Source: Candidatus Omnitrophota bacterium
GTDB lineage: Bacteria; Omnitrophota; Omnitrophia; Omnitrophales; Aquincolibacteriaceae
Direction of reading: 5' to 3'
DNA: 64,000 nucleotides
Assembly (NCBI GenBank): GCA_035368605.1
Contig: DAOSLF010000006.1
Location: forward strand, 17,301 to 81,300
Under the pieces are notes generated by a model, which was not told the origin of the DNA, made no database searches, and saw only the letters and a list, made by a program, of their open reading frames with translations. Made by a program: the position numbers and the translations under genes. This document shows positions 1-47,474 of the stretch, piece after piece (the stretch's first letter is position 1; every line of letters starts with the position of its first letter).

Positions 1-722
1 TGAAGGACCTCTTTCCAGAGATAATCTGTTTTAATCCCGTCAGGATTGGGAGGATTCCCGGCCCCGTCATTCCACCCCTTATTGAAGGGCAAAAACCATG
101 ACTCTTTCGCCTTGAGGTGGGTGCACATCCTTACTTCCTGATCATCGACCGCGAAGTGAACGATGCACCGCCCGAACTGAAACAGGAGTTCCCTGGGATC
201 ACGGTCCCTTTTGTATTGCTGAACAGCATCCTCAACGGTTTGTTTCGTGAGACGATTTTTGAGTTCGAAGGTTGCCACAGGAAGACCGTTGATGAAGATG
301 CCTAGGTCCAGGGCCAGCTGGGTTTCGTCCTTGCTGTATTTCAGCTGCCGTGTAACGCTGAAGATGTTGGACTTGAAAAGCTCAGCTGCGCGAACATTGC
401 CCGGGGTTGGCGTGCCGTAAAAGAGCACTACAGACAAAGGCCCATCGTTGACTCCTTTTCGGAAAACATCAATCACGCCTCTCCTGGCGATTTCCCCCTG
501 AATGCGGGCAAGAAACTTCTGTCGCTTCGGGTTGTCGGTCGTGAGATTCAGGCTTTCCACCACCCGCGGCTGGGTTTTCCGGAAAAACTCTATCAGCTTC
601 GGGAGGTCAACGGCATGGTCGCGATCATAGTCCCCGGCATCGCCCTGGACATATTTGGCGTCCTTGACCAACGATTCAACAATGAGGGCTTCCAACCCCT
701 TTTCGCTAGTATCACTCGGCAT
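1..722 (-). CDS. hsdR: Type I restriction enzyme R subunit HsdR, N-terminal part; the gene runs off the left edge of the window
   Basis: The minus-strand frame from an ATG at 722..720 is open through position 1 and reads MPSDTSEKGLEALIVESLVKDAKYVQ...DLPKLIEFF...TDYLWKEVL, an HsdR N-terminal domain. It overlaps the hsdS stop by about 11 nt, immediately downstream of hsdM/hsdS. It is absent from the ORF track, which shows only complete ORFs. Confidence 0.7.
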   Translation of the reverse strand, partial: MPSDTSEKGLEALIVESLVKDAKYVQGDAGDYDRDHAVDLPKLIEFFRKTQPRVVESLNLTTDNPKRQKFLARIQGEIARRGVIDVFRKGVNDGPLSVVLFYGTPTPGNVRAAELFKSNIFSVTRQLKYSKDETQLALDLGIFINGLPVATFELKNRLTKQTVEDAVQQYKRDRDPRELLFQFGRCIVHFAVDDQEVRMCTHLKAKESWFLPFNKGWNDGAGNPPNPDGIKTDYLWKEVL

Positions 723-2085
723 CCGCTGTCTCCTCCAGAAAATCTTCGGATTCCTCCTGGATTTCTTCTTCTACCAACGGCAACTTCTCAGCTGCCGGTC
801 GCACGTCTAGCTTACCAGTCACTACATCTGCCACAAGTCGTGTTTTATACTCTCTTAGCAAACCCACTTCACGATCGACGCTTTTAATAGCTTTGTCAAA
901 CGGCTTAACTTTCTCATGAACGTATTCAACAATTTTTTCCTGTTCTTTTTTATCGGCAGGAAACGCCAGGTGGAAAGAAGATAAACGCGACTCCGCTATC
1001 GCTGGATATGCAATGCCGATGGAATTCGCTGTAACCCGATCAATAAAGGCTGGAGACTGTATCCCGAGCGTTAAAAATTCAGGTATCACACCTTCTCGGG
1101 GACTAAGAACGGCAAACCCAGTCGATGCTATTAAATTCTCATCATGGGAGCTAATAAAATAAACCGCTTTCAAATATGTCCTTACTGTTGAGATAATAGT
1201 ATCTCCAAAACGAAGCATGCGCCGCGCTCGAGATGGGGCGTTTTTAAATTTCATCTGTTCTGGCTCATGAACCAATCGTCCGGTTCCGACGCACCCTATG
1301 TCGAAATATCGAAATTCATATTCAGGATCAGTCCCTATCCCAAGCGTTTTTTCATTTATTCTGGCCCAATGTTTTAATGGTTTGACTTGCCAATGCTTAG
1401 GAATATCGCCAAGCCACGGAATGTTGGATGGTTTAAGAGGAACGGATGGATCGAGACCGCGAGTAACGGCGCGGTGAATGATGGTCTGCTTCTGCTCATT
1501 GAGCAGTGTCAGGAGTCTCTTTTTTGTTTGAATTGCTCGATTTATTTTTTGATTAACTGTAAAGAGAAAACGACCGATCTTTTCCTGTTCTTCTTTTGGC
1601 GGGAGAGGCATATAAGCGCGGCTTAAGCGGACGTAATCAATATTCTGTCCTTCGCGAATGCCCGTCACAAACAGAGTAAGAGCGTTAATAAAATTTGGAG
1701 ATTTGAAAAAATTAGCAAAAAAAGATCTATCAACCACTTCCTTGGGAGCCAAAATCGTATAAGCAGGGCTGATGATGCCTCGATTGTGGGCGATTTCAAT
1801 CCCACCTTGGAAGGAACGAAGACTGATAACAAAATCTCCAACCTCAACCAATTTCAACAAATGAAAATCCTTTTGAGCCGTAACTGTTCGTTCCCCGTAA
1901 TCTTCCTTACGAACAACGCCTTTCGTTTGGGTTGCCGCAAGCAACGGTTCGTTTGGGAATCCCTTTTGGACTCGCTCATGAAATAAGAACTTCATTCGCC
2001 GCTGAGACCAATGTGAAGGCATTCTATCGACCCAAGGCAGCTCAGTCTCCTTGTAATCGGGATAAGGACGAAGACCCTCGATCAC
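712..2085 (-). CDS. hsdS: Type I restriction-modification specificity subunit HsdS with two target-recognition domains
   Basis: 457 aa with duplicated TRD architecture and central/C-terminal conserved helices. Low GC (about 35-42%). GTG start. Confidence 0.85.
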   Translation of the reverse strand: MIEGLRPYPDYKETELPWVDRMPSHWSQRRMKFLFHERVQKGFPNEPLLAATQTKGVVRKEDYGERTVTAQKDFHLLKLVEVGDFVISLRSFQGGIEIAHNRGIISPAYTILAPKEVVDRSFFANFFKSPNFINALTLFVTGIREGQNIDYVRLSRAYMPLPPKEEQEKIGRFLFTVNQKINRAIQTKKRLLTLLNEQKQTIIHRAVTRGLDPSVPLKPSNIPWLGDIPKHWQVKPLKHWARINEKTLGIGTDPEYEFRYFDIGCVGTGRLVHEPEQMKFKNAPSRARRMLRFGDTIISTVRTYLKAVYFISSHDENLIASTGFAVLSPREGVIPEFLTLGIQSPAFIDRVTANSIGIAYPAIAESRLSSFHLAFPADKKEQEKIVEYVHEKVKPFDKAIKSVDREVGLLREYKTRLVADVVTGKLDVRPAAEKLPLVEEEIQEESEDFLEETADAE

Positions 2086-2226
2086 CTAAAGGCTCCCGAA
2101 GTATTTTTTAATCTTTTGCGCCACTCCGGCATTCCAAAGGCAAACGCTTAAATAAGCAACCCCTTTGTTTTCAATGGGTTGCGTTGTTTTGTCTGTTTTT
2201 ATCATGAGTGCTCTTTAAATAAGATT

Positions 2227-3636
2227 TCAGGCCCAAATCGGTAAATAACGGGCGTATTTACGCGACCCTCCGACTTTTTCATCGGGTTTGATGGCTCTGG
2301 TTTCGATGGCGGCGGCAATGATCTGCGAAATGATAGCGCTCTTGCTTTCCGGCTGGCGAAACCGCTCGCGAAGAGACTGGTTGGTCATGCGCTCGGCCAT
2401 AACCCATTTCAGGCAACAGTGCTGGTAGCAGGCACGGACGCGATCGTCGCGATCCATGGCCTCAAAACCCCGTGGTCCGAAGATGATAACGACCGTGCGG
2501 CGATGACTGGCCCGGAAATCCGGCGCGGGAAGCTGGTAAACCTCGGCTGCCTGAACGACTTTATCGATACCGCTGCTCTTCTCCTCGCAAATGCGCATCC
2601 GGCGCATGAGATCGGCGAGCCGCTCGTTGCGGGACTGGTAACCGTCGATGAAACGGTCCACGGGCACGATCGGTTCGCCGGGGTTCGAGATTTCGACACG
2701 ATCAGAGTAAATTTCCACCATCATGGATGCACCACCGATCAAAAAATCCTGGTGGACAAGCGCATTGGCAACGAGTTCGCGAATAGCGATTTCCGGGACA
2801 AGCTTTACCTCTTTGCGCAAGGCATCCTGGATGACTTCATTTTGAGGAAGCTGTCCCATGATGAATCGCACGAGTCCCTGAAAACCGACAGCGTAGCCTT
2901 TCGTACCGGGCTGGTCCAGCCTGGTCTCCATTTTGGATGTGCCGGTATAAACAACCACGCGGGGCGCTTTGCGGGAAATGTCCGCAAAATCCTGAAGATG
3001 CTTGGCCAGTAGCAGCGCACCTATACGGCGAATGGCATAACTGCCGTCAACCAAGTCTACAAGGCGTTCTTGCCGGAGACGGTCCAGCACGCCGGTCTGC
3101 TCCTCGGGATAGGGCAATTTGAGCAACTCGAAAAAACCCTGAGTGTCCAACCGTTCAACTACTTGTGCGGCATCCAGACCCGTGAGCGAGTGTCCTTCCA
3201 GCCAGTCCGGCTCGCCTTCGGCAAAAATTCTGCGCAACTGATCCTCACTCATGGGCTGGAGTTCCCGTCCGGCGCGCATAAAATAAGTGCCATCCAGGTG
3301 ATAGGCCGTGCCCAAAGGCCGGGAGGGGATATGAAATACCACAACGCGCCCGGCCGGGTGGGCAACGGCTTCGACATCCACGCGAAAGCCAAGAGTTTGA
3401 AAGAGTTTCTCTGCCATGCCAACGGGATCGTTGACGGCTGCCGTTCCAACGACGGCATGCGGCGGCTTGTCCGCTATACCAAACAGCATTTGCCCCCCGC
3501 CTTCATTCGCAAGCGCGACGCAGTATTTACAGAGCGTGCGATAATCGAATTGCGTTTTGGCTTCCTTGAACTCCAGACGTTGATGCTCGGATGGAGCGCT
3601 GCGTAACAAGTCGATTTGCGCGAAAGAGGTACTCAT
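2227..3636 (-). CDS. AlbA_2 (Schlafen-like) DNA-binding domain plus C-terminal HATPase-like domain protein, embedded in the type I RM operon
   Basis: 469 aa. The N-terminus resembles the AlbA_2 / divergent AAA fold; the C-terminus reads EIAIRELVANALVHQDF...EISNPG (HATPase_c_4-like). Its ATG overlaps the hsdM stop (ATGA). Confidence 0.65.
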   Translation of the reverse strand: MSTSFAQIDLLRSAPSEHQRLEFKEAKTQFDYRTLCKYCVALANEGGGQMLFGIADKPPHAVVGTAAVNDPVGMAEKLFQTLGFRVDVEAVAHPAGRVVVFHIPSRPLGTAYHLDGTYFMRAGRELQPMSEDQLRRIFAEGEPDWLEGHSLTGLDAAQVVERLDTQGFFELLKLPYPEEQTGVLDRLRQERLVDLVDGSYAIRRIGALLLAKHLQDFADISRKAPRVVVYTGTSKMETRLDQPGTKGYAVGFQGLVRFIMGQLPQNEVIQDALRKEVKLVPEIAIRELVANALVHQDFLIGGASMMVEIYSDRVEISNPGEPIVPVDRFIDGYQSRNERLADLMRRMRICEEKSSGIDKVVQAAEVYQLPAPDFRASHRRTVVIIFGPRGFEAMDRDDRVRACYQHCCLKWVMAERMTNQSLRERFRQPESKSAIISQIIAAAIETRAIKPDEKVGGSRKYARYLPIWA

Positions 3637-5957
3637 GTTTTTCCTTTCAACAGACCATCGAGAAGCCCCTCGGCTTCCTTCCCGATAGCCAGAATATCTG
3701 CCCGGATTTCGTCCAGTGTTCTTAACGGCTGTGGCTTGTAAAAATGACGCGTAAAAGAAATCTCGTAACCGATCCGGGCCGACTCATTGATCCAGGCGTC
3801 GGGCGTATAGGGTAGGACTTCGCGGCGGATAAAAGCTTCTATCCCGCCTTCTTCCAGAAGCGGTACCTGCTCCGTATCCCTCAAATCAGAGTCTGGTTCA
3901 TATTGGGCAATATGCTTTTTGCCGTCTATTGAGATTTCATATCGACCATAAAGCGGGGAGGCTTCGGCTTTCCCGGGCCTGAACAGCCTGGCGATAACCG
4001 GCGGAGCTGTTTCAACGCGCCAGCTTGCTGCGCGCAGGATGGTTTTAAGATTGGCAGCTCCAATTTCAAGATTCAGTTTTTCGAGAGCGTCGTTCACTCT
4101 AGATCGAAAAATATTATGGTCTTCGAACAACCCGTCTCCCAGTTCTTTCCCGAGAGATGTGGCAATTTCAACAAGTCTTTGGTCGCGTTCCCACGTCCTG
4201 GGATCGAGAAGCTTCTTTTTCTTCTTGTCAGAGAGCCCCTTCCCGGAAGATGCTTCCCCGTCCTCCGAGCCCTCTTCGTCGCTTCCCCATTCATCCAGTG
4301 CTTTTTCCAGCCGGGGTTTTACCTTGGAGAAGTCCCTGGAGAGAGCATCGCCAAACTGGCCGTAGAGACGCGAACGAATATCCTCATCTCCGGAGCTGAA
4401 GCGCAAGGATTCTATCGCCTTTGGCGTGATCCGGCTGTGAAGACGCAGCGGCCGTTCAACGGTAACCTTCCAATAACCAAAGGCCGTATTGGGAAAAATC
4501 CTGGATTGTTCTGTTTCCTTGAAAGAGAGGTATGTCTGGCATATGCTTTGAATATCTTCCTCGGCAAGATCGCAATTCTTCTTCCCGAGATTCTTGCGGC
4601 GGGGTTTGAACCACTGCGTGGCATCAATCAGTTGGACCAACCCCTTGCGGGAGTCCGGCTTTCGGTTCGTCAACACCCAGATATAGGTGGCAATGCCCGT
4701 GTTGTAAAAGATATTCAAGGGCAGGGCAATAATAGCCTCCAGCCAGTCATTTTCGATTATCCAGCGGCGGATGTTGGATTCACCCTGCCCGGCGTCCCCG
4801 GTAAAAAGAGACGAACCGTTATGGACTTCGGCAATGCGGCTCCCTAACGGGGTATCATGTTTCATCTTGCTCAGTTTACTGGCCAGGAAAAGAAGCTGTC
4901 CGTCACTGGACCTTGTGATCAAGCTGAAACCAGGATCATCTGCGTGGCTAATTATAAAACGAGGGTCCTTTATCCCGTCTTTTCCTCCCATGCGTTCAAG
5001 GTCTGTTTTCCAGCTTTTACCGTAAGGCGGATTTGAGAGCATGAAGTCAAATGATCTGGAGGGGAATCCATCCTGGGACAATGTGGACCCATACTTGAAA
5101 TTCTCCGCCTCCTCACCCTGCCCCTTGAGCAGGAGATCCGCCTTGGTAATAGCATAGGTTTCGGGGTTCACCTCTTGCCCAAACAGGTGTATGGCTACAT
5201 CTTTTTTGTGATCTTTGGCCAGTTTTTGAAGCACTTCTTCAGCGACGGTCAGCATGCCGCCCGTGCCGCAGGCTCCATCGTAAACAAGATAAGTGCCTGA
5301 TGTGATCTTTTCGGATACGGGCAGAAAAACAAGCTTCGCCATAAGCTCGACAACGTCGCGGGGCGTAAAGTGCTCTCCGGCTTCTTCGTTGTTCTCTTCA
5401 TTGAAACGGCGGATAAGCTCTTCGAAGATGGTCCCCATCGCGTGATTATCAAGACCCGGAAGTCGAACCTTTCCATCGGTATCCATGACGGGCTTGGGGC
5501 TAAGGTTGATTGTGGAATCCAGGAACTTCTCAATCAGATGCCCCAGAATGTCAGCTTCGATGAGTGTTTGTATTTGGTTGCGGAATTTGAACTTCTCAAG
5601 AATCTCCTGAACATTGGGCGAAAAACCATTCAGATAATCTTCGAAGTCGGCCTTCAACTGCTGTTGTTTTGCTCTCGCGCGGAGGTCCCTTAAAGTAAAC
5701 TGCGAGGTATTGTAGAAGGCTTGCCCGGAAGCCTGACGCAGGGCGGCGTCTTGATTGGTGATGCGAGACTTGTCCAACGTATTCCGCATTTCAAGAACAG
5801 ATTGTTTCGTGGGTTCCAGCAGCGCGTCCAGCCGCCGGATCACGACCATCGGAAGGATTACATCGCGGTATTTCCCTCTAACATACACATCGCGCAAAAC
5901 ATCATCCGCTATGCCCCAAATAAAGTCCGTGATCCAGTTCAGCTCTCCGTTAGCCAT
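3633..5957 (-). CDS. hsdM: Type I restriction-modification N6-adenine DNA methyltransferase HsdM, unusually long, with a C-terminal extension of about 250 aa
   Basis: 774 aa with an HsdM_N-like N-terminus and an NPPYG catalytic motif (LSNPPYGKSW). It has an acidic/Lys-rich low-complexity linker followed by an extra C-terminal domain. Confidence 0.9.
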   Translation of the reverse strand: MANGELNWITDFIWGIADDVLRDVYVRGKYRDVILPMVVIRRLDALLEPTKQSVLEMRNTLDKSRITNQDAALRQASGQAFYNTSQFTLRDLRARAKQQQLKADFEDYLNGFSPNVQEILEKFKFRNQIQTLIEADILGHLIEKFLDSTINLSPKPVMDTDGKVRLPGLDNHAMGTIFEELIRRFNEENNEEAGEHFTPRDVVELMAKLVFLPVSEKITSGTYLVYDGACGTGGMLTVAEEVLQKLAKDHKKDVAIHLFGQEVNPETYAITKADLLLKGQGEEAENFKYGSTLSQDGFPSRSFDFMLSNPPYGKSWKTDLERMGGKDGIKDPRFIISHADDPGFSLITRSSDGQLLFLASKLSKMKHDTPLGSRIAEVHNGSSLFTGDAGQGESNIRRWIIENDWLEAIIALPLNIFYNTGIATYIWVLTNRKPDSRKGLVQLIDATQWFKPRRKNLGKKNCDLAEEDIQSICQTYLSFKETEQSRIFPNTAFGYWKVTVERPLRLHSRITPKAIESLRFSSGDEDIRSRLYGQFGDALSRDFSKVKPRLEKALDEWGSDEEGSEDGEASSGKGLSDKKKKKLLDPRTWERDQRLVEIATSLGKELGDGLFEDHNIFRSRVNDALEKLNLEIGAANLKTILRAASWRVETAPPVIARLFRPGKAEASPLYGRYEISIDGKKHIAQYEPDSDLRDTEQVPLLEEGGIEAFIRREVLPYTPDAWINESARIGYEISFTRHFYKPQPLRTLDEIRADILAIGKEAEGLLDGLLKGKT

Positions 5958-6199
5958 TGTTTTTCTCTTCTCTCCCCAGGCAGCGTTTGGTCAAAACCGG
6001 GCTATTCTAGTCCCCTGAAAATAAAAAAGCCACGGAAACAACCGTAAGTCAGGTTGGGTAAAAGGCGACGGCATCATGCCGCGGGAAACCGCGGAAAAAG
6101 CGTGCGTGCGGCGGATTTGTGGCGCCCGGGACCGAAAAAAGGCGGGAAACACCGGCAACCACCGCAAGGAACTGAAGCGGGTTGCGCAGATAAAAACCT

Positions 6200-20083: not shown

Positions 20084-21379
20084 TCAGCGCGGCTTGAAAA
20101 CAGAATAAAAATGGCGTTCGAAATCCGGGTACGACGTCGCGATACAATCAGTGCCGTTCACAACGATCGGAGCGTTCGAAGCAAGGCTCGCGATGGCCAG
20201 ACTCATCGCGGTCCGGTGATCCGCAAAGCTGTCGATCGCCCCCCCTCTGAGCGCTTCGACGCCCCGGATGAAACACCCATCCGGAAGCTCCTCGATCGAG
20301 GCCCCGACGGCCTTCAGATTCCGGACCATGGACCGGATCCGGTCCGTTTCCTTGACGCGCAGCTCTTCGGCGCCGGAAACGAGGCTCTCGCCTTCGGCAA
20401 GAGACATCGCAACCATCAGCACGGGAAGTTCATCCACAAGCGACGGGATTTCCGAACGGCCCACCCCGGTCCCCCTGAGCCGCGCCCCCCTGACGCGGAT
20501 TTCGCCCAAAGGCTCCGGAACTTCCTGCGTAACGCGGACCTCGATCCCGGCGCCCATCCGCTTCAACACATCGAGGATCCCCGTGCGCGTGGGATTGAGC
20601 CCGACATCCCTGACAAGGATTTCTGAACCGGGAACCATCGCCGCCCCCGCGAGAAAGAACGCCGCCGAGGAAATATCGCCGGGAATCTTCGCGCAAAACG
20701 GCCGGAGGTTGTCCGTGCGTCCGATCGTGAGGAGACCGCCCTCTCGCGTGAAGTTCGCGCCCGCGGCTTTCAAAAAACGTTCCGTGTGGTCTCGCGACGC
20801 GATCGTTTCGCGAATAACCGTCGGGCCATCGGCATACATCCCGGCGAAGAGCAGTGCGGATTTGACCTGGGCGCTCGACAACCTGTTATCAAAATCGATC
20901 CCCCGGAGATTACCCCCGCGGACCGTGAGAGGAGCGAAATTCGCGTTATTCTTCCCCTTGATCTGCGCGCCCATCCGTTTGAGCGGATCGGTCACACGAC
21001 GCATCGGCCGCAACGAAAGCGACGGGTCCCCCGAAAGGGTCGTTTCAAATTCTTGTCCGGCAAGAATCCCCAGAAGCAGGCGGATCGATGTCCCCGAATT
21101 GCCGAGATAAATCTCCCCGGCCGGGGCCTTCAAGCCGCGGACCCCGTTCCCGCGAACCGTGATGACGCCGCTGCCGGGAACGTGATCGATAGAGATCCCC
21201 ATCATCCGGAGGGCTTCGAGCGTGCGCAGGCAGTCTTCACCTTCCAGGAAATTTTCATAGCGGCTTTCACCGTCGGAAAGGGAGCCGAAAAGCAGGGCTC
21301 GGTGGGATACGGACTTGTCGCCGGGCGGCATCACGGTCCCCGAAAACTTCCCGGGGCCGTTAAAGGTGAGGAAGCTCAT
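20084..21379 (-). CDS. aroA: 3-phosphoshikimate 1-carboxyvinyltransferase (EPSP synthase)
   Basis: 431 aa typical AroA. Confidence 0.9.
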   Translation of the reverse strand: MSFLTFNGPGKFSGTVMPPGDKSVSHRALLFGSLSDGESRYENFLEGEDCLRTLEALRMMGISIDHVPGSGVITVRGNGVRGLKAPAGEIYLGNSGTSIRLLLGILAGQEFETTLSGDPSLSLRPMRRVTDPLKRMGAQIKGKNNANFAPLTVRGGNLRGIDFDNRLSSAQVKSALLFAGMYADGPTVIRETIASRDHTERFLKAAGANFTREGGLLTIGRTDNLRPFCAKIPGDISSAAFFLAGAAMVPGSEILVRDVGLNPTRTGILDVLKRMGAGIEVRVTQEVPEPLGEIRVRGARLRGTGVGRSEIPSLVDELPVLMVAMSLAEGESLVSGAEELRVKETDRIRSMVRNLKAVGASIEELPDGCFIRGVEALRGGAIDSFADHRTAMSLAIASLASNAPIVVNGTDCIATSYPDFERHFYSVFKPR

Positions 21380-41583: not shown

Positions 41584-42015
41584 TCAGAGAGCGCCCGCGG
41601 CCGTCCTTGTCGCTTTCGCGGCCTTCCCGGCTTCTTTCTGTTTTTTCCTGGCCTCTTTCTCGGCTTTCTTCCGGGCTTTCCTGGTTTCCTTGTCGGCCTT
41701 TTTCTGCGCCCTCTTCATTTCCTTGTCGGCCCCGGACTGCGTCTTCCCGGCCTCAAGATCGGCTTTTTCCCTGGCCTCCTTCGCGATCTCCCCGGCTTCG
41801 TCGGTCGTTTCCTTCATATTCCTTCCGGCTTTCCGGCCTTCCCGCTTCGCGAATCCGGGAGGCGTGCTTTCCCCCTGCCATCCGGTCTTTCTACCCTTGA
41901 TCCATCCCTTGTGGGTTGTCCCGCCTTCGTCTTCGGCATAGGCGACAACGCCGAGCGACGCGACGCACAGGACCAGAACGGCCAATCCGGCAATCTTGAA
42001 GAATTTCGTACGCAT
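41584..42015 (-). CDS. Secreted Lys/Glu/Ala-rich low-complexity protein
   Basis: Signal peptide MRTKFFKIAGLAVLVLCVASLGVVAYA. The C-terminus is KKADKETRKARKKAEKEARKKQKEAGKAAK, encoded by degenerate tandem DNA repeats. Confidence 0.5.
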   Translation of the reverse strand: MRTKFFKIAGLAVLVLCVASLGVVAYAEDEGGTTHKGWIKGRKTGWQGESTPPGFAKREGRKAGRNMKETTDEAGEIAKEAREKADLEAGKTQSGADKEMKRAQKKADKETRKARKKAEKEARKKQKEAGKAAKATRTAAGAL

Positions 42016-42040: not shown

Positions 42041-42238
42041 TCAGACGGCCCCGCGCATTCTAAGGAACGCGTCAACCGAACGGTCATAGGTCCTCTCGGC
42101 CGACGCGGTAAAATAGCACGCGGGAAGTTCATTCCGCTCCCGGTGGTGGGCCAGGCATTCACAGCAAATGCCTTTCCGGGGGCACGGTTCATAAGTGCAG
42201 TTGCATCGTTTCCTGTTCGCTGAGACCTTGCAATCCAT
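42041..42238 (-). CDS. Small cysteine-rich protein (65 aa), putative metal-binding
   Basis: [43 protein letters not shown]; an ATG with a GAGG RBS. The track extends it to a GTG at 42340. Confidence 0.5.
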
Positions 42239-42623
42239 CCACGAACCTCTCGGGTTGAAGAACAGACACGGAATCCCGGTAATACGCTGCGGGATCTTTC
42301 GAATGCCGTGGATTATATCACGAAACTTTTCCGTTTCCACGCCCGAGCGTCGTCAAATCCTGGGGAGGCGGGCCTTGAGCTCGGCGAGGATTTGCAATCC
42401 AACCTCTCTGTCCCTGCGTCGATCGTCTTTTGCGGGCACCGGACCTGCGCTTCCGGGGGCCGGTCCGCCACCGGGCCAGACACTCTCCGTTCCATCGCCG
42501 GTCCTGACAAACCCCGACCGGGACCTTGAACCCGTTCTGCTAGATCACCCTTTCGATCCGTTCATACAAGTCCTTCAGACCGCAGGGCTTCGGGATTTCC
42601 GTCATAACTCCGACCTCCCCCGG

Positions 42624-42977
42624 TCAGGCGTATTTTTCAATGATATCGGCAAGCTCTTTGAGTCCGACGGGTTTGTGGAGGCACATGAGCGCCCCGTGTT
42701 TCATCGCGTCGGCGTCGATCTGGCTGTCGTTATACCCCGTGAGCATAATCGTCTTGATGCCGGGCTTTTGCGCCTTCACCTCGCGAAGAATCTCCATGCC
42801 CTTCATTCCCCCGAGCCGCATGTCCACAAAGGCGAGGTCGGGTTCCTTATCGAGAATCAGCCGGAGCCCTTCCCGCCCGTCCTCCGCCGTGTGGACTTCG
42901 TGCCCGAGCTCCGTGAAGGCGTCCCGCAACGTGCCGAGCATATCCGCTTCGTCGTCCACAAAAACGATCCTTGCCAT
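42624..42977 (-). CDS. Stand-alone response regulator receiver domain (CheY-like)
   Basis: 117 aa with a D-D-D acidic pocket, phospho-acceptor D (FVDMRLGG) and T/K motifs. It lies 1 nt after the histidine kinase stop. Confidence 0.85.
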   Translation of the reverse strand: MARIVFVDDEADMLGTLRDAFTELGHEVHTAEDGREGLRLILDKEPDLAFVDMRLGGMKGMEILREVKAQKPGIKTIMLTGYNDSQIDADAMKHGALMCLHKPVGLKELADIIEKYA

Positions 42978-42978
42978 G

Positions 42979-45180
42979 TCATCCTCCCGCGAGCGCCGGC
43001 AGGAAGACAGAGAAGACCGTCCCCTCGCCAGGCACCGATTCCAGCTGAATGTGTCCCTGATGCGCGTCGATCATTTTGCGGATAATGTAAAGCCCGAGCC
43101 CCGTTCCCTTCACCGCCGTCGCCTTCAGCGTAAAAAACGGCACAAACAGCTTCCCCTGCGTCTCCGCGTCCATGCCGATGCCGTTGTCACGCACGAGAAT
43201 CCGCACATGCGGCTTCCCGTTCAGCTCCGCGTTCTCCGCCTCGAACCGGATACTTCCCTTCTCCCAACCCTCCGGTTTCGCGAGGGTCCCGAGCCGGAAG
43301 GCCTCCTCCTTCATCGCGATCGCATCCGCCGCGTTGTCGAGCAGGTTGAAGAGCACCTCCTCGATCTCGCTGAAGTTCCCCTTGATCCGCTTCAGGTCCG
43401 GCGCGGGACTCATCACGAAATCGATCTCGCGAAGGTCGTGCTTGCACTCCCACAAACGCACGCTGTTTTCCATCGCCTCCTTCACGTCCATCGCCTTCAG
43501 CTCCTTCGAGAGCCGGCTGAAATCAAGCAGCCGCTTCACGATCTCGCCGCCGTGCGCCGCGTTCTTCGAGATCTTCCGGCAGGTGTTAAGGAGCGACTCC
43601 GTGAGCTTCAGCGCCGCAGCCGGGTCGTTCGCCTCAAGATGTTTTCGGATCTTCGGGAGCTCGACCATCATCGCCGATTCCGCGCCGAGCTTGATCACGT
43701 TGAACCGGTTATTCATCTGGTGGCCGATCCCCGACGCCATCGTCCCGAGGTCCGCCATCTTCGCCGCCTGGAACAAATGCACCTGCTGGCTCTCGAACTC
43801 CGCGAGAAAAAAACAGTTCTCGATCGCGAGCGCCGCCTGGTTCGCGAGCGTCGCGAGGATATCGAGGTCGCCTTCCGTGTAAAGACGGTTCGAGCGTTTG
43901 CTACCGAGCGCCACGAACCCGAGCAGACGATCCCGTACGAAGCTCGGCACGACGAGCGCCGCCCCGAGAGATTCCATTTCACGGGCCGCCGCCGCGCCCA
44001 AAGCCGCGTTCGTGCGCGCCTCCTCGGGAAGCACCGGCCCTTCCGTTTCGCGAAGATAGACGATAAGCGGAGACTCTTCCCCAAGCGGCCTTTCCACATC
44101 GTCCAGACCGTTGCCGCGCCGCGCCCGGCACACATAATGCTTCGCCTCGTTATCCCACAGAAAAATACGCACGTGCGTGATCTTGACCGTCTTTGTCAGG
44201 ATATGGACCGTCAGCTTCAGAAGATGTTCGAGGTCCTTGATCAGCGTCATCCCCCGCGACGCCTGCAAGAGCGTCTGCTGGTACGCCTTCTGCTCCCGCA
44301 ACAGCACCCCCTCCGCCCTCCGCTGCAACATCAGATAAAGGAACGGACCGAAAAAACTGAACAGCGCATACAAACCCAGCGGGAAATACCACCACCGGTC
44401 CCCCCAGTGCCCGGTCAGCCAGTCCCCCCCCCACACAACGCTCGCGACAGGAACCCCAATAATCACCGCGTACACAAGGATGAAGATCATCGACCGGGTA
44501 ATGGCGACATTCACATCCATGAGACGGAATTTAATGATCGCGTAGGCCGCTATGACGACATAGAGTGAAACCAGAATATTTCCTGCCGGAGGAAAAGGTA
44601 TGTTGTACCAGAGAAAATAATTTGTAAAACCGCCCCCCCATCCGATCACCGTCGCAACCAGGATATATTTCATTTGATTGCGGATTATCCCCGAAGCCCC
44701 GCGCAAGCTCCGGACAATAAGTGTCATCCCATAAACAACAATCACCACCCAAAACAACAGGAAAGGATGAAACAACAAACCGGGGACAGGCCAAAACCGG
44801 TAGCTCAGCCGGGGAGCAACGCCGGCCACAAAGAGTGAAGTAAAACTGAAAAACAACGACAAAATCGCAAACACATAGGCTGCAACCAGTGACTTTTTAC
44901 AATCCCTGATTCGTCCAAACATCGCGGCGATATGGTGAAGATAAAAAACAGGTATAAGTATCGCGCCAGCTATCAAACCACGGGAATAGAAGAGGGCTTG
45001 CTCCGGGGAATCCGAAATTTGCCAAAAAAAATAAAAAATGCTCCAAACGGCAACGGACAGGGAAAAAAACAGATAGGTGCGGTTTTTGATGTTACGCGGG
45101 TTCTGGTGGATGACAAAAGCACCAAAAACCAGGCTCGTTACAGCATTGGTCAGGCTACTGATAATACTGTAAGTGACCAT
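42979..45180 (-). CDS. Sensor histidine kinase: N-terminal 7TM receptor-like membrane domain, GAF domain, HisKA and HATPase_c
   Basis: 733 aa with about 7 predicted TM helices in the first 290 aa, a GAF-like middle, an H-box (IGHQMNNRFN) and N, G1, G2 boxes (DNGIGMD...GTGLGL). The 5-prime 800 nt are low-GC. Confidence 0.85.
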   Translation of the reverse strand: MVTYSIISSLTNAVTSLVFGAFVIHQNPRNIKNRTYLFFSLSVAVWSIFYFFWQISDSPEQALFYSRGLIAGAILIPVFYLHHIAAMFGRIRDCKKSLVAAYVFAILSLFFSFTSLFVAGVAPRLSYRFWPVPGLLFHPFLLFWVVIVVYGMTLIVRSLRGASGIIRNQMKYILVATVIGWGGGFTNYFLWYNIPFPPAGNILVSLYVVIAAYAIIKFRLMDVNVAITRSMIFILVYAVIIGVPVASVVWGGDWLTGHWGDRWWYFPLGLYALFSFFGPFLYLMLQRRAEGVLLREQKAYQQTLLQASRGMTLIKDLEHLLKLTVHILTKTVKITHVRIFLWDNEAKHYVCRARRGNGLDDVERPLGEESPLIVYLRETEGPVLPEEARTNAALGAAAAREMESLGAALVVPSFVRDRLLGFVALGSKRSNRLYTEGDLDILATLANQAALAIENCFFLAEFESQQVHLFQAAKMADLGTMASGIGHQMNNRFNVIKLGAESAMMVELPKIRKHLEANDPAAALKLTESLLNTCRKISKNAAHGGEIVKRLLDFSRLSKELKAMDVKEAMENSVRLWECKHDLREIDFVMSPAPDLKRIKGNFSEIEEVLFNLLDNAADAIAMKEEAFRLGTLAKPEGWEKGSIRFEAENAELNGKPHVRILVRDNGIGMDAETQGKLFVPFFTLKATAVKGTGLGLYIIRKMIDAHQGHIQLESVPGEGTVFSVFLPALAGG

Positions 45181-45189
45181 GGAAAGCTG

Positions 45190-46209
45190 TTACCCGTTAT
45201 TTTTCGCAATAATATAATGAATAATACCTTGTTGCTCAGACCTAACCTTGAGATTGTTTTCAGCAAACCCGGCGGACAAAAAAATCTTTTTAAACTCATC
45301 AATGCTTCGATATATCAGCTGCCACTCCCCGACCCATTCCAGAAAATAGAACGATGGATTCTGATATTTCTCTCCAAAATTAGCTATAAACAAAACGCCG
45401 TCCTTGCTCAAAAATCGCCTTAATGCCGCAATGAGACGTATCGCTATGCGCTCGTCCAAATAGTCAAACAGCCCCAAAGAAAAAATCAGATCGTACGGCG
45501 CTCGCGCCAGATCCTTTTTAAAAGCGATCCGCACGGCATTCTCGCGTTTAAAGTTCACAAATCGAGTCCAGTTGCCCAGAAGGTCTTTCGCATAATCAAT
45601 CGCATTCTGATCCTGATCATAGCAATCGATCTCTACGTCCCCAATGGCAGGAGATGCCTCTTCGAGAAACTCCTTTACATCCCGACATGGTCCGGACGCG
45701 AGATCCATAATTTTCAGGCATTTGTCTTTTCGGGATTTCAAAGCAGCTGAAAGAAACTTTACAATATCCTGTTTGCGATTCCGGATTGCGTTGGCGGCAG
45801 GCGACATCTGGGAATAGTTGTCAAAGAGACGGTCAAAACCTGTCGTTTGAGGATCGTTGCGGTACATATCATCAATAATTTTGAAATCGCCGGCATAACC
45901 GTACGGTTTCTCAAGACTGCAGCGGATATGTTCCCCGTATATAAAATCTGAACGCAACCTGTTCACAAACATCTGTTTGAGCTTATAAACACTTCTCTCA
46001 TCACCGTGCTTCAACCGGTCCTGCTCAAAAAGCATAAGGTCATGAAATATCGCATTAATCTCCTGATTGAAAATGCTTTGATAACGCCCCCACTCATTTG
46101 GGTGAGAATCCAGATGTCCCTTGATTGCCCGAGCTACTTCCCTGTATTTCCTGATTCTTGCCAATAAAGACATTTCCTGTTTTTTGAGCAAAGAGTCGAT
46201 GTTCAGCAT
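45190..46209 (-). CDS. Class I SAM-dependent methyltransferase with an N-terminal domain of about 150 aa; family unassigned; low-GC gene
   Basis: Motif I MDLASGPCRDV, an acidic post-I CYDQD and motif II PYDLIFSLGLFDYL. About 42-45% GC versus about 60% for the flanks. It starts 4 nt after the receiver stop. Confidence 0.75.
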   Translation of the reverse strand: MLNIDSLLKKQEMSLLARIRKYREVARAIKGHLDSHPNEWGRYQSIFNQEINAIFHDLMLFEQDRLKHGDERSVYKLKQMFVNRLRSDFIYGEHIRCSLEKPYGYAGDFKIIDDMYRNDPQTTGFDRLFDNYSQMSPAANAIRNRKQDIVKFLSAALKSRKDKCLKIMDLASGPCRDVKEFLEEASPAIGDVEIDCYDQDQNAIDYAKDLLGNWTRFVNFKRENAVRIAFKKDLARAPYDLIFSLGLFDYLDERIAIRLIAALRRFLSKDGVLFIANFGEKYQNPSFYFLEWVGEWQLIYRSIDEFKKIFLSAGFAENNLKVRSEQQGIIHYIIAKNNG

Positions 46210-46213
46210 AAGG

Positions 46214-46591
46214 TTAATCCCCTAAAACCTTTTTAACTTCCGCTAAAAAAACCACAAGATCGAAGGGTTTCAGGATATAGGCCGTGGGGCTCAGGGCCTG
46301 GGCCCCGGCCTCAGCCTTGGGATCGGCATAGCCGGTCATGAAGATGCGAGGCGCCTGTTTGATCCCCCGCCGGGTCATTACATCGAGAACCCGCGTCACG
46401 GTCTCAATGCCGTCCGGACCCGGCATCCGGATGTCGCTGATGATGAGATCGAAATCAATGGATTCGGCCATCGCGACCGCCTCGTCACAATGCTTCGCGA
46501 CCAGCACTTCATAGCCGTTTCGTTCGAGCGCAAGCACAAGGCTCTTTGTGATCAGTTCTTCGTCGTCAATGACCAGGATCTGTTTGCTCAT
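46214..46591 (-). CDS. Stand-alone response regulator receiver domain
   Basis: MSKQILVIDDEELI...DLIISDIRMPGPDG...MTGY, 125 aa, first gene of the apparent operon. Confidence 0.85.
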   Translation of the reverse strand: MSKQILVIDDEELITKSLVLALERNGYEVLVAKHCDEAVAMAESIDFDLIISDIRMPGPDGIETVTRVLDVMTRRGIKQAPRIFMTGYADPKAEAGAQALSPTAYILKPFDLVVFLAEVKKVLGD

Positions 46592-46658
46592 GATCGAATG
46601 CCCTCTGTCTGGATTGGAATGCGCCCCTTGGGGAACATTTTATCGGCTCTTTATATAT

Positions 46659-46693
46659 CGGGATTTCGCGGGATTTCTATAGCGGAAATCGGG
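46659..46693. promoter_or_regulatory. Three copies of a CGGGATTTC element (two direct, one inverted) upstream of the receiver-methyltransferase-kinase-receiver operon
   Basis: cgggatttc g cgggatttc tatagcg gaaatcggg, in the 85-nt gap between the Sir2 stop and the receiver start, with an adjacent TATATA(A) segment. Confidence 0.4.
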
Positions 46694-47474
46694 GCATGGC
46701 CCGGTCTTGCGCGAGGGCCTTCCAGATCGCTTCGAGGGCTTCGGCGGCGCCAAGCGAAATCCTGATATCAACCTTTTCGGAAATCCCCGTCCGGTCGGGA
46801 TTGATCTCGACGGTGGGCCTCCCTTCGCGCGCGGCCTGGACCATCGGCTGGCTGATATACGGGAAGACACTCGTGGTCCCGATGGAAAAATAAACGTCGA
46901 ACGGTTTCGCGAGGGCGCGTTCCATCATTTCGACCTTGCGCGGCGGGATCCACTCCCCGAAAAAAACGACGTCGGGACGGGCGGCGGCCCCGCACCTGGG
47001 GCACCGGGGCGGAATCGCGAACCCCTCGTAGCGCTCGACGCGCGTCCGCCAGCCGCAACGTTCGCAGAGGATCACGTACATGTCCCCGTGGAGGTCGATC
47101 ACGTTCTTTGAGCCGGCGGCCTGGTGAAGACCGTCGATATTCTGGGTCAGGACCCAGACGCGCTCGAACCGCGCTTCCATGCCCGCGAGAATCTCATGGG
47201 CGCGGTTGTGTTTTGCGCCGCGGCAGCGATTCTCGATTTGCGCGAGATATTTCCAGGTAATCCCGGGCCGCGTCCGCAAGGTCTCGCCCGCGAGCGCGGT
47301 CTCGATCGGAATGCCGTCGGCCGTCGTCCGGTCGTTATAAAGACCGCCGATTCCTCGGTAGGTCGGGATCCCCGAATCCGCCGAAATTCCGGCGCCCGTA
47401 ATGAAAAGCACGCTTCCGGCCTTCCTCAGCAATCCCGCGACTTTCCGGATCCGTTCGGTGTTCGTCACATCCAT
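46677..47474 (-). CDS. NAD-dependent protein deacylase (Sir2/CobB family)
   Basis: GAGISADSGIPTYRG, a Zn ribbon CERCG...CPRCG, and Sir2 catalytic HG. The start is placed at MDVTNTE; the track extends to 47591. Confidence 0.85.
   Translation of the reverse strand: MDVTNTERIRKVAGLLRKAGSVLFITGAGISADSGIPTYRGIGGLYNDRTTADGIPIETALAGETLRTRPGITWKYLAQIENRCRGAKHNRAHEILAGMEARFERVWVLTQNIDGLHQAAGSKNVIDLHGDMYVILCERCGWRTRVERYEGFAIPPRCPRCGAAARPDVVFFGEWIPPRKVEMMERALAKPFDVYFSIGTTSVFPYISQPMVQAAREGRPTVEINPDRTGISEKVDIRISLGAAEALEAIWKALAQDRAMPRFPL

Follow-up and report, generated by a model that had tools for sequence, protein, structure and literature searches.

A 64,000-nucleotide stretch of DNA from a Candidatus Omnitrophota bacterium (GenBank assembly GCA_035368605.1, contig DAOSLF010000006.1, positions 17,301 to 81,300 of the forward strand; hereafter the window) carries a four-gene signalling operon that encodes a methyltransferase (MT), a histidine kinase (HK) with a seven-transmembrane (7TM) sensor domain and two stand-alone receivers. 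Among related loci, MT and the 7TM domain form one module that is swapped between relatives relative to the kinase core. Composition and sequence comparison support the view that the cassette at 44509-46259 of the window stems from a fairly recent replacement by the allele of a lower-GC relative. Omnitrophota are a phylum of mostly uncultivated ultra-small bacteria, and we lean towards a model in which MT is an autoinducer synthase and the 7TM domain its cognate receptor, the two being exchanged as one specificity cassette as in the Phc, agr and comQXP systems.

Architecture of the operon

Within 42540-46700, four tightly packed minus-strand genes, RR1, MT, HK and RR2, are separated by gaps of 4, 9 and 1 nt, as an earlier note, made from the letters of this DNA, had already described. 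The genes, the segments of HK and the block of deviating composition are listed below; aa denotes amino acids, TM transmembrane and GC3 the GC fraction at third codon positions.

46214..46591, minus strand: RR1, stand-alone receiver, 125 aa; Response_reg only; D53/T86/K108
45190..46209, minus strand: MT, class I S-adenosylmethionine (SAM)-dependent methyltransferase, 339 aa; GC 0.434, GC3 0.49; proposed signal synthase
42979..45180, minus strand: HK, HisKA_7TM-GAF histidine kinase (Pfam), 733 aa
44509..45180, minus strand: HK residues 1-224, HisKA_7TM sensor, GC3 about 0.52; seven hydrophobic segments; candidate receptor of the MT product
44251..44508, minus strand: HK residues 225-310, two further TM segments and linker; junction motif AYxIIK[FY]RLMD just upstream
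43801..44250, minus strand: HK residues 311-460, cytoplasmic GAF domain; GC3 about 0.76
42979..43800, minus strand: HK residues 461-733, DHp and HATPase_c, the resident kinase core; GC3 0.85
42624..42977, minus strand: RR2, stand-alone receiver, 117 aa; Response_reg only; D52/T80/K102; GC3 0.77
44509..46259, minus strand: low-GC3 mosaic block comprising the end of RR1, the whole of MT and the HisKA_7TM domain of HK; delimited by composition, incongruence and relatives

Response_reg is the only Pfam match in either receiver, so that both lack an output domain, as had been noted before. RR1 ends 4 nt before the start codon of MT, with its last ~15 codons within the low-GC3 block, and RR2 starts 1 nt past the HK stop. 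MT is matched by Methyltransf_12, Methyltransf_25 and, marginally, Methyltransf_20, and carries its motif I, DLASGP, at 169. HK matches HisKA_7TM (PF16927, residues 13-223) with 55 bits against a gathering threshold of 28.6 bits, GAF (316-455) and HATPase_c (605-729); its phospho-acceptor is H487 in GIGHQMNN. Hydropathy analysis places seven TM segments in the HisKA_7TM region and two more at 231-285, giving about nine hydrophobic segments. The 9-nt gap between MT and HK leaves no conserved small open reading frame (ORF) there.

MT and the sensor domain form one exchanged module

The operon, which the earlier note called unusual, is not a one-off but belongs to a large family of signalling cassettes with hundreds of members, almost all of them in Omnitrophota. 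More than 700 MT homologues were found by word-indexed search and about 4,100 by exhaustive search, and nearly all of the named ones are from Omnitrophota. Many metagenomes contain the window's species, in which MT is identical and the housekeeping neighbours are those of the window (the dcw cluster, a SIR2-family gene, peptidase U32, SDR, SpoU and ligA), and all of its contigs carry the same allele. The closest other MT is 79% identical, and the next-closest kinase, after an identical protein of a 'Candidatus Omnitrophota bacterium' metagenome-assembled genome, 66%. Wherever MT is 70-79% identical the order RR1-MT-HK-RR2 is kept; in these type A relatives RR1 and MT are spaced by 3-8 nt, and the operon often continues with RR3, a double-receiver gene, and a divergent XRE-HTH/cupin gene.

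Eighty metagenomic loci were retrieved with the kinase as query and surveyed for ORFs and profile hidden Markov model matches. Among the 53 distinct 7TM-kinase genes whose upstream kilobase was visible, 44 have an MT homologue directly upstream on the same strand. The linked kinases include some that are only 27-45% identical as well as GAF-less forms of ~540 aa (HisKA_7TM, HisKA and HATPase_c). Given this frequency, divergent kinases included, the pairing of MT with 7TM kinases must be old and strongly maintained, and the association with histidine kinases that the earlier note had raised on the strength of a single operon is kept elsewhere.

Per-segment identities were compared across 15 full loci (105 pairs). 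Identity in MT closely follows identity in the 7TM domain (Spearman 0.88; Mantel r = 0.88, p = 2e-4), and that in GAF follows the DHp/CA core (r = 0.94), whereas MT and the kinase core do not co-vary significantly (Mantel r = 0.09, p = 0.26). MT type and 7TM type are separated in 0 of the 105 pairs, the largest difference between MT and 7TM identity being 0.18. In 13 pairs GAF and core are at least 65% identical and yet the 7TM domains at most 45%, and one GAF and core clade bears three MT/7TM types.

Individual pairs of loci display the replacement directly. From HK residue ~294 to ~4 kb downstream, past RR2 and RR3 and for about 2.5 kb more, the DNA of L001 and L018 is 87% identical, and upstream it is 77% identical, but over most of MT and the 7TM domain no DNA similarity is detectable; at the protein level their cores are 97%, their 7TM domains 36% and their MTs 53% identical. 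A constant scaffold formed by the N-terminal third of MT was considered for this pair and rejected, the divergence being spread along the whole protein. Similarly, L019 and L026 are 90.6% identical over 4.6 kb of DNA from HK residue ~221, with an MT of another subfamily upstream. L026 shares with L024 the type B module, whose MT is of the Methyltransf_20 family, and between L019 and L024 the core is 96%, the 7TM domain 31% and MT 22% identical.

Type B cassettes (L022, L023-L026) carry a receiver-containing protein of ~450-560 aa in place of RR1. In L022 (1767-3155) this protein is an alpha/beta-hydrolase (Hydrolase_4, Abhydrolase; esterase-type) that carries a receiver at its C terminus, and it may be an esterase that acts on the MT product under the control of phosphorylation. 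Both types occur in tandem in one genome, L017 (2572-10187), where type A is followed by type B with its hydrolase-receiver, MT and a second 7TM kinase. L022 (2-7409) contains an orphan type A MT and then a type B module joined to an A-clade GAF and core, and looks like a recombinant between such tandem copies. Together, the tandem in L017 and the recombinant-like L022 offer a mechanism for shuffling.

Mosaic structure of the window's operon

Computed in 300-nt windows, GC content is 40-47% between about 44450 and 46250 and about 60% in the flanks. A likelihood fit with two change points, made on third codon positions, sets the block edges at 46259 (RR1 codon 111) and 44509 (HK codon 224), enclosing 1.75 kb with a GC3 of 0.50 versus 0.80 outside (log-likelihood ratio 66). 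The 3' edge falls where the Pfam match to HisKA_7TM ends. By segment, GC3 amounts to 0.675 in RR1, 0.49 in MT, 0.57 in HK residues 1-270, 0.76 in the GAF region, 0.85 in the kinase core and 0.77 in RR2. The dip that the earlier note had placed over MT and the first 800 nt of the kinase gene is thus real, but within the kinase gene it covers only the first ~670 nt.

Total GC of the block is 0.442, compared with 0.590±0.024 (minimum 0.522) in 211 frame-free windows of block size within the stretch (z = -6.2). In L005, a relative of 57% GC whose MT is 76% identical, the GC3 of MT is 0.78 and that of the 7TM domain 0.785; since both are GC-rich there, the low GC of the block is not forced by protein or membrane composition. 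The objection anticipated in the earlier note, that the block might lie within the normal variance for membrane proteins, is therefore answered by the z-score and by L005. Lower GC3 in MT and the 7TM domain than in the remainder of the kinase gene does recur in other lineages, the mean differences being -0.14 and -0.11 in 14 loci, of which two belong to the species of the window. At -0.33 for MT and -0.30 for 7TM, the window lies at the extreme, and L005 and L003 have no deficit.

The kinase itself changes its nearest relative along its length. In a mosaic scan, a 40-residue sliding comparison of identity, the identity of HK residues 1-220 to L001/L005/L017 is 47-82% and that to L018 27-62%; for residues 211-280 the order is reversed, with 32-50% and 65-75%, respectively; and from residue 271 onward the two are about equal. 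The switch falls at the motif AYxIIK[FY]RLMD (residues ~213-222) and coincides with the GC3 change point at codon 224. This motif is conserved in nearly all allele types, with variants in L022 and L024. Whole-segment comparison of the window with L001/L003/L005 reveals no incongruence, which is seen only at the finer scale and with L018/L022. The incongruence at the GC3 step and the module-swapped syntenic relatives lend support to the proposal of the earlier note that a laterally acquired sensor and methyltransferase cassette was grafted onto a resident kinase core.

Nature of the methyltransferase

The AlphaFold (AF2) model of MT (pLDDT 91.5) consists of an N-terminal helical domain (~1-160) and a Rossmann domain (165-336). 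Foldseek matches in the PDB comprise 3ocj (an uncharacterised Bordetella protein), the alpha-keto-acid C-methyltransferase SgvM, O-methyltransferases and C-methyltransferase domains of polyketide synthases (PKS), with no CheR among the 50 listed. The CheR domains PF01739 and PF03705 likewise gave no match to the window MT at E <= 0.01. As judged from the model, the fold is that of a small-molecule or natural-product methyltransferase with an N-terminal helical cap and not that of CheR. MT had been described as not CheR-like, and it indeed is not; the accompanying idea that it occupies the place of a sensory-adaptation enzyme finds no backing, because a small-molecule fold makes a role as signal synthase likelier than one in adaptation.

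In a tblastn search against plasmids, MT matched a methyltransferase domain inside a type I PKS (E = 5e-15). Sequence searches of the PDB returned no relatives (best E = 0.17 with the single MT and 0.0037 with the family profile), and NCBIfam holds no informative model for either the window MT or the type B MT. Methyltransf_20 (PF12147) scores 22.0 bits against a threshold of 21 with the window MT, only over model positions 78-168 of 309, and 91 bits with the type B MT over positions 44-309; a family search with the latter gave generic names only and no PhcB annotation. Consequently the Pfam, NCBIfam and PDB sequence searches connect MT with no well-known metabolic enzyme, a match that the earlier note would have taken as evidence against its own reading.

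Fusions among the relatives of MT (P0123, P0124, P0234, P0190 and P0224) bear on its likely chemistry. In distant relatives the fusion partner is a C-terminal FabH/KAS III (207 bits) or the N-terminal domain of an acyl-CoA dehydrogenase, and in close relatives (43-45% identical, full length) it is an N-terminal PilZ domain. Both Omnitrophota and Elusimicrobiota contain PilZ-MT proteins, which are ~450-476 aa long. Such partners suggest substrates of the acyl or lipid type and an enzyme controlled through N-terminal signalling domains. Two proteins that are 50-54% identical to MT, P0025 and P0086, are named 'extracellular factor (EF) 3-hydroxypalmitic acid methyl ester biosynthesis protein' by JGI, the wording with which KEGG defines PhcB.

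Proposed mechanism and alternatives

In the mechanism we propose, MT would methylate a hydrophobic small molecule, most plausibly converting a fatty-acid-derived carboxylate into its methyl ester, as PhcB does in Ralstonia, where the signal is methyl 3-hydroxymyristate or methyl 3-hydroxypalmitate. The product would enter the membrane or diffuse between cells and be recognized by the HisKA_7TM domain, a domain for which we found no ligand reported in the literature. HK would then autophosphorylate on H487 and pass the phosphate to the output-less RR1 and RR2, which would act via protein contacts. RR1, encoded 4 nt upstream of MT, may feed back on MT; this close spacing, the receiver protein that takes the place of RR1 in type B cassettes and the PilZ fusions, which mirror such an arrangement, all suggest it. 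RR2 would be a possible output or a phosphate sink. Synthase and sensor would be inherited and exchanged as a single 'pherotype'-like cassette by recombination at a conserved junction, where the 7TM domain meets the remainder of the kinase, and the import of a lower-GC allele into the window would have left the GC3 step. Since a synthase and its receptor must match, the proposal would explain why MT and the 7TM domain are inherited jointly, diversify jointly and move as one cassette.

A protein substrate for MT would account for part of these data. If MT methylated the kinase, for example at the cytoplasmic loops of the 7TM domain, or a receiver in the manner of CheR, its position beside receivers in a two-component operon would be natural, enzyme and substrate would be expected to co-vary as MT and 7TM do, and the type B hydrolase-receiver upstream of MT would follow the CheB-like logic of a receiver-controlled methylesterase. 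We nevertheless judge adaptation of this kind unlikely, as MT has a capped small-molecule fold and no CheR match at E <= 0.01, the FabH/KAS III and acyl-CoA dehydrogenase fusions of its relatives indicate acyl substrates, the type B hydrolase is a member of esterase/lipase-type families (Hydrolase_4, Abhydrolase) rather than of CheB_methylest, and the window operon contains no demethylase. Also doubtful, albeit to a lesser degree, is a private function in lipid or membrane homeostasis, in which MT would modify a lipid or lipid precursor, the 7TM domain would monitor the pool and the receivers would tune MT, with no signalling between cells. A sensor embedded wholly in the membrane by about nine hydrophobic segments, the lipid-pathway fusions in the MT family and the Mla lipid-transport genes and LssY_C protein beside the cassette in some relatives all agree with such a function, as do the PilZ-MT fusions, which suggest control of the enzyme by an intracellular second messenger, and the absence of DNA-binding domains from all regulators, which is compatible with post-translational control. 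However, homeostasis provides no obvious reason why MT and the 7TM domain should be replaced repeatedly by highly divergent types in near-identical loci, and it leaves the two different tandem systems of L017 unexplained; this pattern is typical of signal/receptor diversification.

Import of the block into the window has an alternative of its own, namely that local selection or mutation bias, such as codon usage that slows translation of the membrane domain, lowered its GC content in a purely vertical operon. That many lineages show a less pronounced GC3 deficit in MT and 7TM (mean -0.11 to -0.14), that the window is equally distant from L001 and L005 in every whole segment and that no donor was found would all agree with such a history. 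The lack of any deficit in L005 and L003, however, rules out a general constraint; the soluble MT and the membrane-embedded 7TM domain are both deficient whereas TM8-9 of the same kinase are not; the nearest relative of the kinase changes exactly at the GC3 step; relatives exhibit outright module replacement at the same junction; and even the other low-GC stretch of the window, the restriction-modification island at 1-6000, is less AT-rich than the block. We therefore consider a history without import very improbable.

Several points weigh against an imported synthase-receptor cassette, the reading that we prefer. Taken as whole segments, the window is equidistant from low-GC and high-GC relatives, and the donor of the block is not among the relatives sampled (closest MT 79%, closest kinase 66%). 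MT and the 7TM domain are physically adjacent, so that part of their co-variation would arise from linkage alone. The replacements are between relatives with 87-91% identical flanking DNA rather than between pherotypes of one species, and a conspecific strain bearing a different cassette did not turn up, the next kinase being 66% identical. No transporter, DNA-binding regulator or target gene is linked to the operon in the window. The PhcB connection of MT draws on two automated JGI names, and Phc was compared by description. Finally, a signalling role of the MT product, its chemistry and its binding by the 7TM domain, the tasks of RR1 and RR2 and a quorum function are all steps that we infer.

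Beyond the window, we entertain, as a tentative extension, that Omnitrophota hold a phylum-wide and previously undescribed family of small-molecule quorum-sensing systems, in which MT would make a lipid-like methylated autoinducer, HisKA_7TM would be its receptor, many 'dialects' would arise by junction exchange and output would pass through receiver-only proteins. Such output might include post-translational feedback on the synthase or, in type B cassettes, on an esterase that breaks down the signal under the control of a receiver. In the literature we found neither a link of HisKA_7TM or Methyltransf_20 to such a pair nor quorum sensing of this kind in Omnitrophota. If correct, the model would supply the first ligand class and a partner enzyme for the HisKA_7TM sensor domain, carry methyltransferase-based, Phc-like signalling far beyond Burkholderiaceae, and extend the 'dialect' logic of agr and comQXP, with a synthase and sensor cassette on a constant core, to small-molecule signals in an uncultivated phylum. 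The natural cassette types (A1, A2 and B) on near-identical cores would serve as ready-made controls for specificity swaps. For annotation, a sharp GC step inside a gene would be explained as a recombination scar at a domain junction.

Leader region and neighbouring genes

The remaining features at the two ends of the operon are the following.

46592..46700, minus strand: promoter/leader region preceding RR1; overlapped by the stop codon (46677) of the SIR2-family gene that lies upstream
42540..42605, minus strand: 21-aa ORF MTEIPKPCGLKDLYERIERVI, 18 nt after RR2; doubtful as a gene; one exact CGGGATTTC copy inside

The leader had been said to contain a triple repeat. On the plus strand it has two exact tandem copies of CGGGATTTC (46659-46667 and 46669-46677), and these stand; the third, at about 46685-46693, is imperfect and inverted and does not. 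Exact CGGGATTTC is mildly enriched in the window, with seven copies against 2.0±1.4 expected, all on the plus strand (starts at 20444, 42591, 45731, 46659, 46669, 49944 and 57931). Four of the seven lie in the operon region, one of them just after the RR2 stop, and the seven copies have no extended context in common. A role of CGGGATTTC as a conserved operator was rejected, because the repeat is not conserved upstream of RR1 in relatives and is not enriched when up to one mismatch is allowed. No sigma-70-like match was reported in the leader at 46592..46700. The 21-aa ORF, previously listed as a possible fifth gene, gained no support as one; in relatives its place is taken by the RR3 double-receiver gene or by nothing.

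Downstream of the operon in the window, a Lys/Glu/Ala-rich 143-aa ORF (41584-42015, minus strand) has no Pfam match and lies in a stretch whose AT skew is extreme (-0.6 to -0.8) and whose GC skew is -0.28; it is adjoined by a cysteine-rich DUF6485 protein (42041-42340, minus strand). At the other low-GC stretch of the window, 1-6000 (GC 0.44-0.55), a type I restriction-modification island comprises three genes.

712-2085, minus strand: HsdS-like
2227-3636, minus strand: Schlafen/AlbA_2 ATPase
3633-5957, minus strand: HsdM

The surroundings of the cassette vary among relatives. In L003 and L004 (519-5111), five tandem tyrosine-recombinase (Phage_integrase) genes lie directly upstream of the RR1-MT-HK cassette, an array that could be shufflon- or integron-like and relevant to cassette mobility. 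A small hydrophobic ORF of 73-77 aa, absent from the window, is conserved directly upstream of RR1, with a slight overlap, in L001 (5415-5642), L003 (5419-5640) and L008 (800-1033). An LssY_C-domain protein is encoded directly upstream of RR1 in L005 (1-1039), L006 (290-6402) and L007 (1554-2900); in L006, genes for MlaE/MlaF/MlaD-like and outer-membrane efflux (OEP) proteins precede it, and this lipid-transport context may or may not be related to the cassette. In L053 (3548-4975), one stop-to-stop ORF matches both MT and the 7TM domain and may be an MT-kinase fusion or a read-through artefact.

Comparison with known systems

With CheR/CheB the window shares a methyltransferase in a phosphorelay operon, and the type B relatives add a receiver-fused hydrolase beside MT. 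Membership was rejected, since CheR and CheB domains and a methyl-accepting chemotaxis protein are absent from the window operon, and MT has a small-molecule fold; the type B hydrolase-receiver (L022) falls in alpha/beta-hydrolase families and not with the CheB-type methylesterase. Assignment of HK to PrsK (TIGR02916), the XrtA/PEP-CTERM histidine kinase, was likewise rejected at 81.4 bits against a cut-off of 300. HK aligns with PrsK from end to end (residues 12-728 to model positions 6-679) and has the same overall architecture, but the window lacks both the sigma-54 regulator PrsR and an exosortase context, and we know of no pairing of PrsK with a methyltransferase.

In CqsA/CqsS and LqsA/LqsS, the gene for an alpha-hydroxyketone synthase stands beside that for a kinase whose TM-helix bundle senses a hydrophobic signal. 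The synthase is a pyridoxal-phosphate-dependent acyl-CoA transferase in CqsA/LqsA and the candidate synthase of the window a methyltransferase. The six-helix sensors CqsS and LqsS are not known to be related to HisKA_7TM.

Closer in logic are comQXP and agrBDC, in which, as in the window's family, the variable stretch consists of the signal-making gene or genes and the sensor part of the kinase, the catalytic part is conserved and exchange occurs by recombination. ComP and AgrC combine a variable sensor half at the N terminus with a conserved C-terminal half. The relatives' loci carry the same hallmark of pherotypes, hypervariable MT and sensor domain on a conserved kinase core and flanks. The signals of comQXP and agrBDC are modified peptides encoded in the locus, whereas the window has no evident peptide gene and its enzyme is a small-molecule methyltransferase. 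Moreover, polymorphism in the window's family is between related species or genera (87-91% flank identity), in contrast to comQXP and agr; comQ DNA of different pherotypes is 65-70% identical, in strains with ~99% identical gyrA (PMC4408185).

The Phc system of Ralstonia combines phcB (methyltransferase), phcS (sensor kinase), phcR and phcQ in one operon; its regulators have receiver domains and no DNA-binding domain, and PhcB and PhcS sequences group strains by signal type (PMC8578825, PMC11960443). In both Phc and the window, a methyltransferase gene lies directly upstream of a membrane kinase gene (with a gap of 9 nt in the window) and the regulators are receiver-only proteins without a DNA-binding domain (RR1 and RR2, and in relatives the double receiver RR3). 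The two differ in phylum and in the size of the methyltransferase, 464-468 aa for PhcB (PMC8578825) versus 339 aa for MT. The window further has an extra receiver gene before MT and a 733-aa kinase with HisKA_7TM, two extra TM segments and GAF. Neither the operon nor the homologous loci contain a PhcR-type regulator (receiver with a histidine-kinase-like domain), and no LysR partner (PhcA) was identified in them, although no search of the window was aimed at LysR. Patterns derived from the published primers phcS-start (PMC11960443) and phcB-FW3-514 (PMC8578825 Table S7), one of them wobble-degenerate, gave zero matches in genome contigs, where representatives may differ at these sites or the locus may not be readable; PhcB peptides deduced from the primers occur in 0 of 276 collected proteins. 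The grouping of Phc strains by PhcB and PhcS parallels the co-variation of MT and 7TM in the Omnitrophota loci, and by this analogy we regard the window's system as one that would work like Phc, without filing it as a member of the Phc family.

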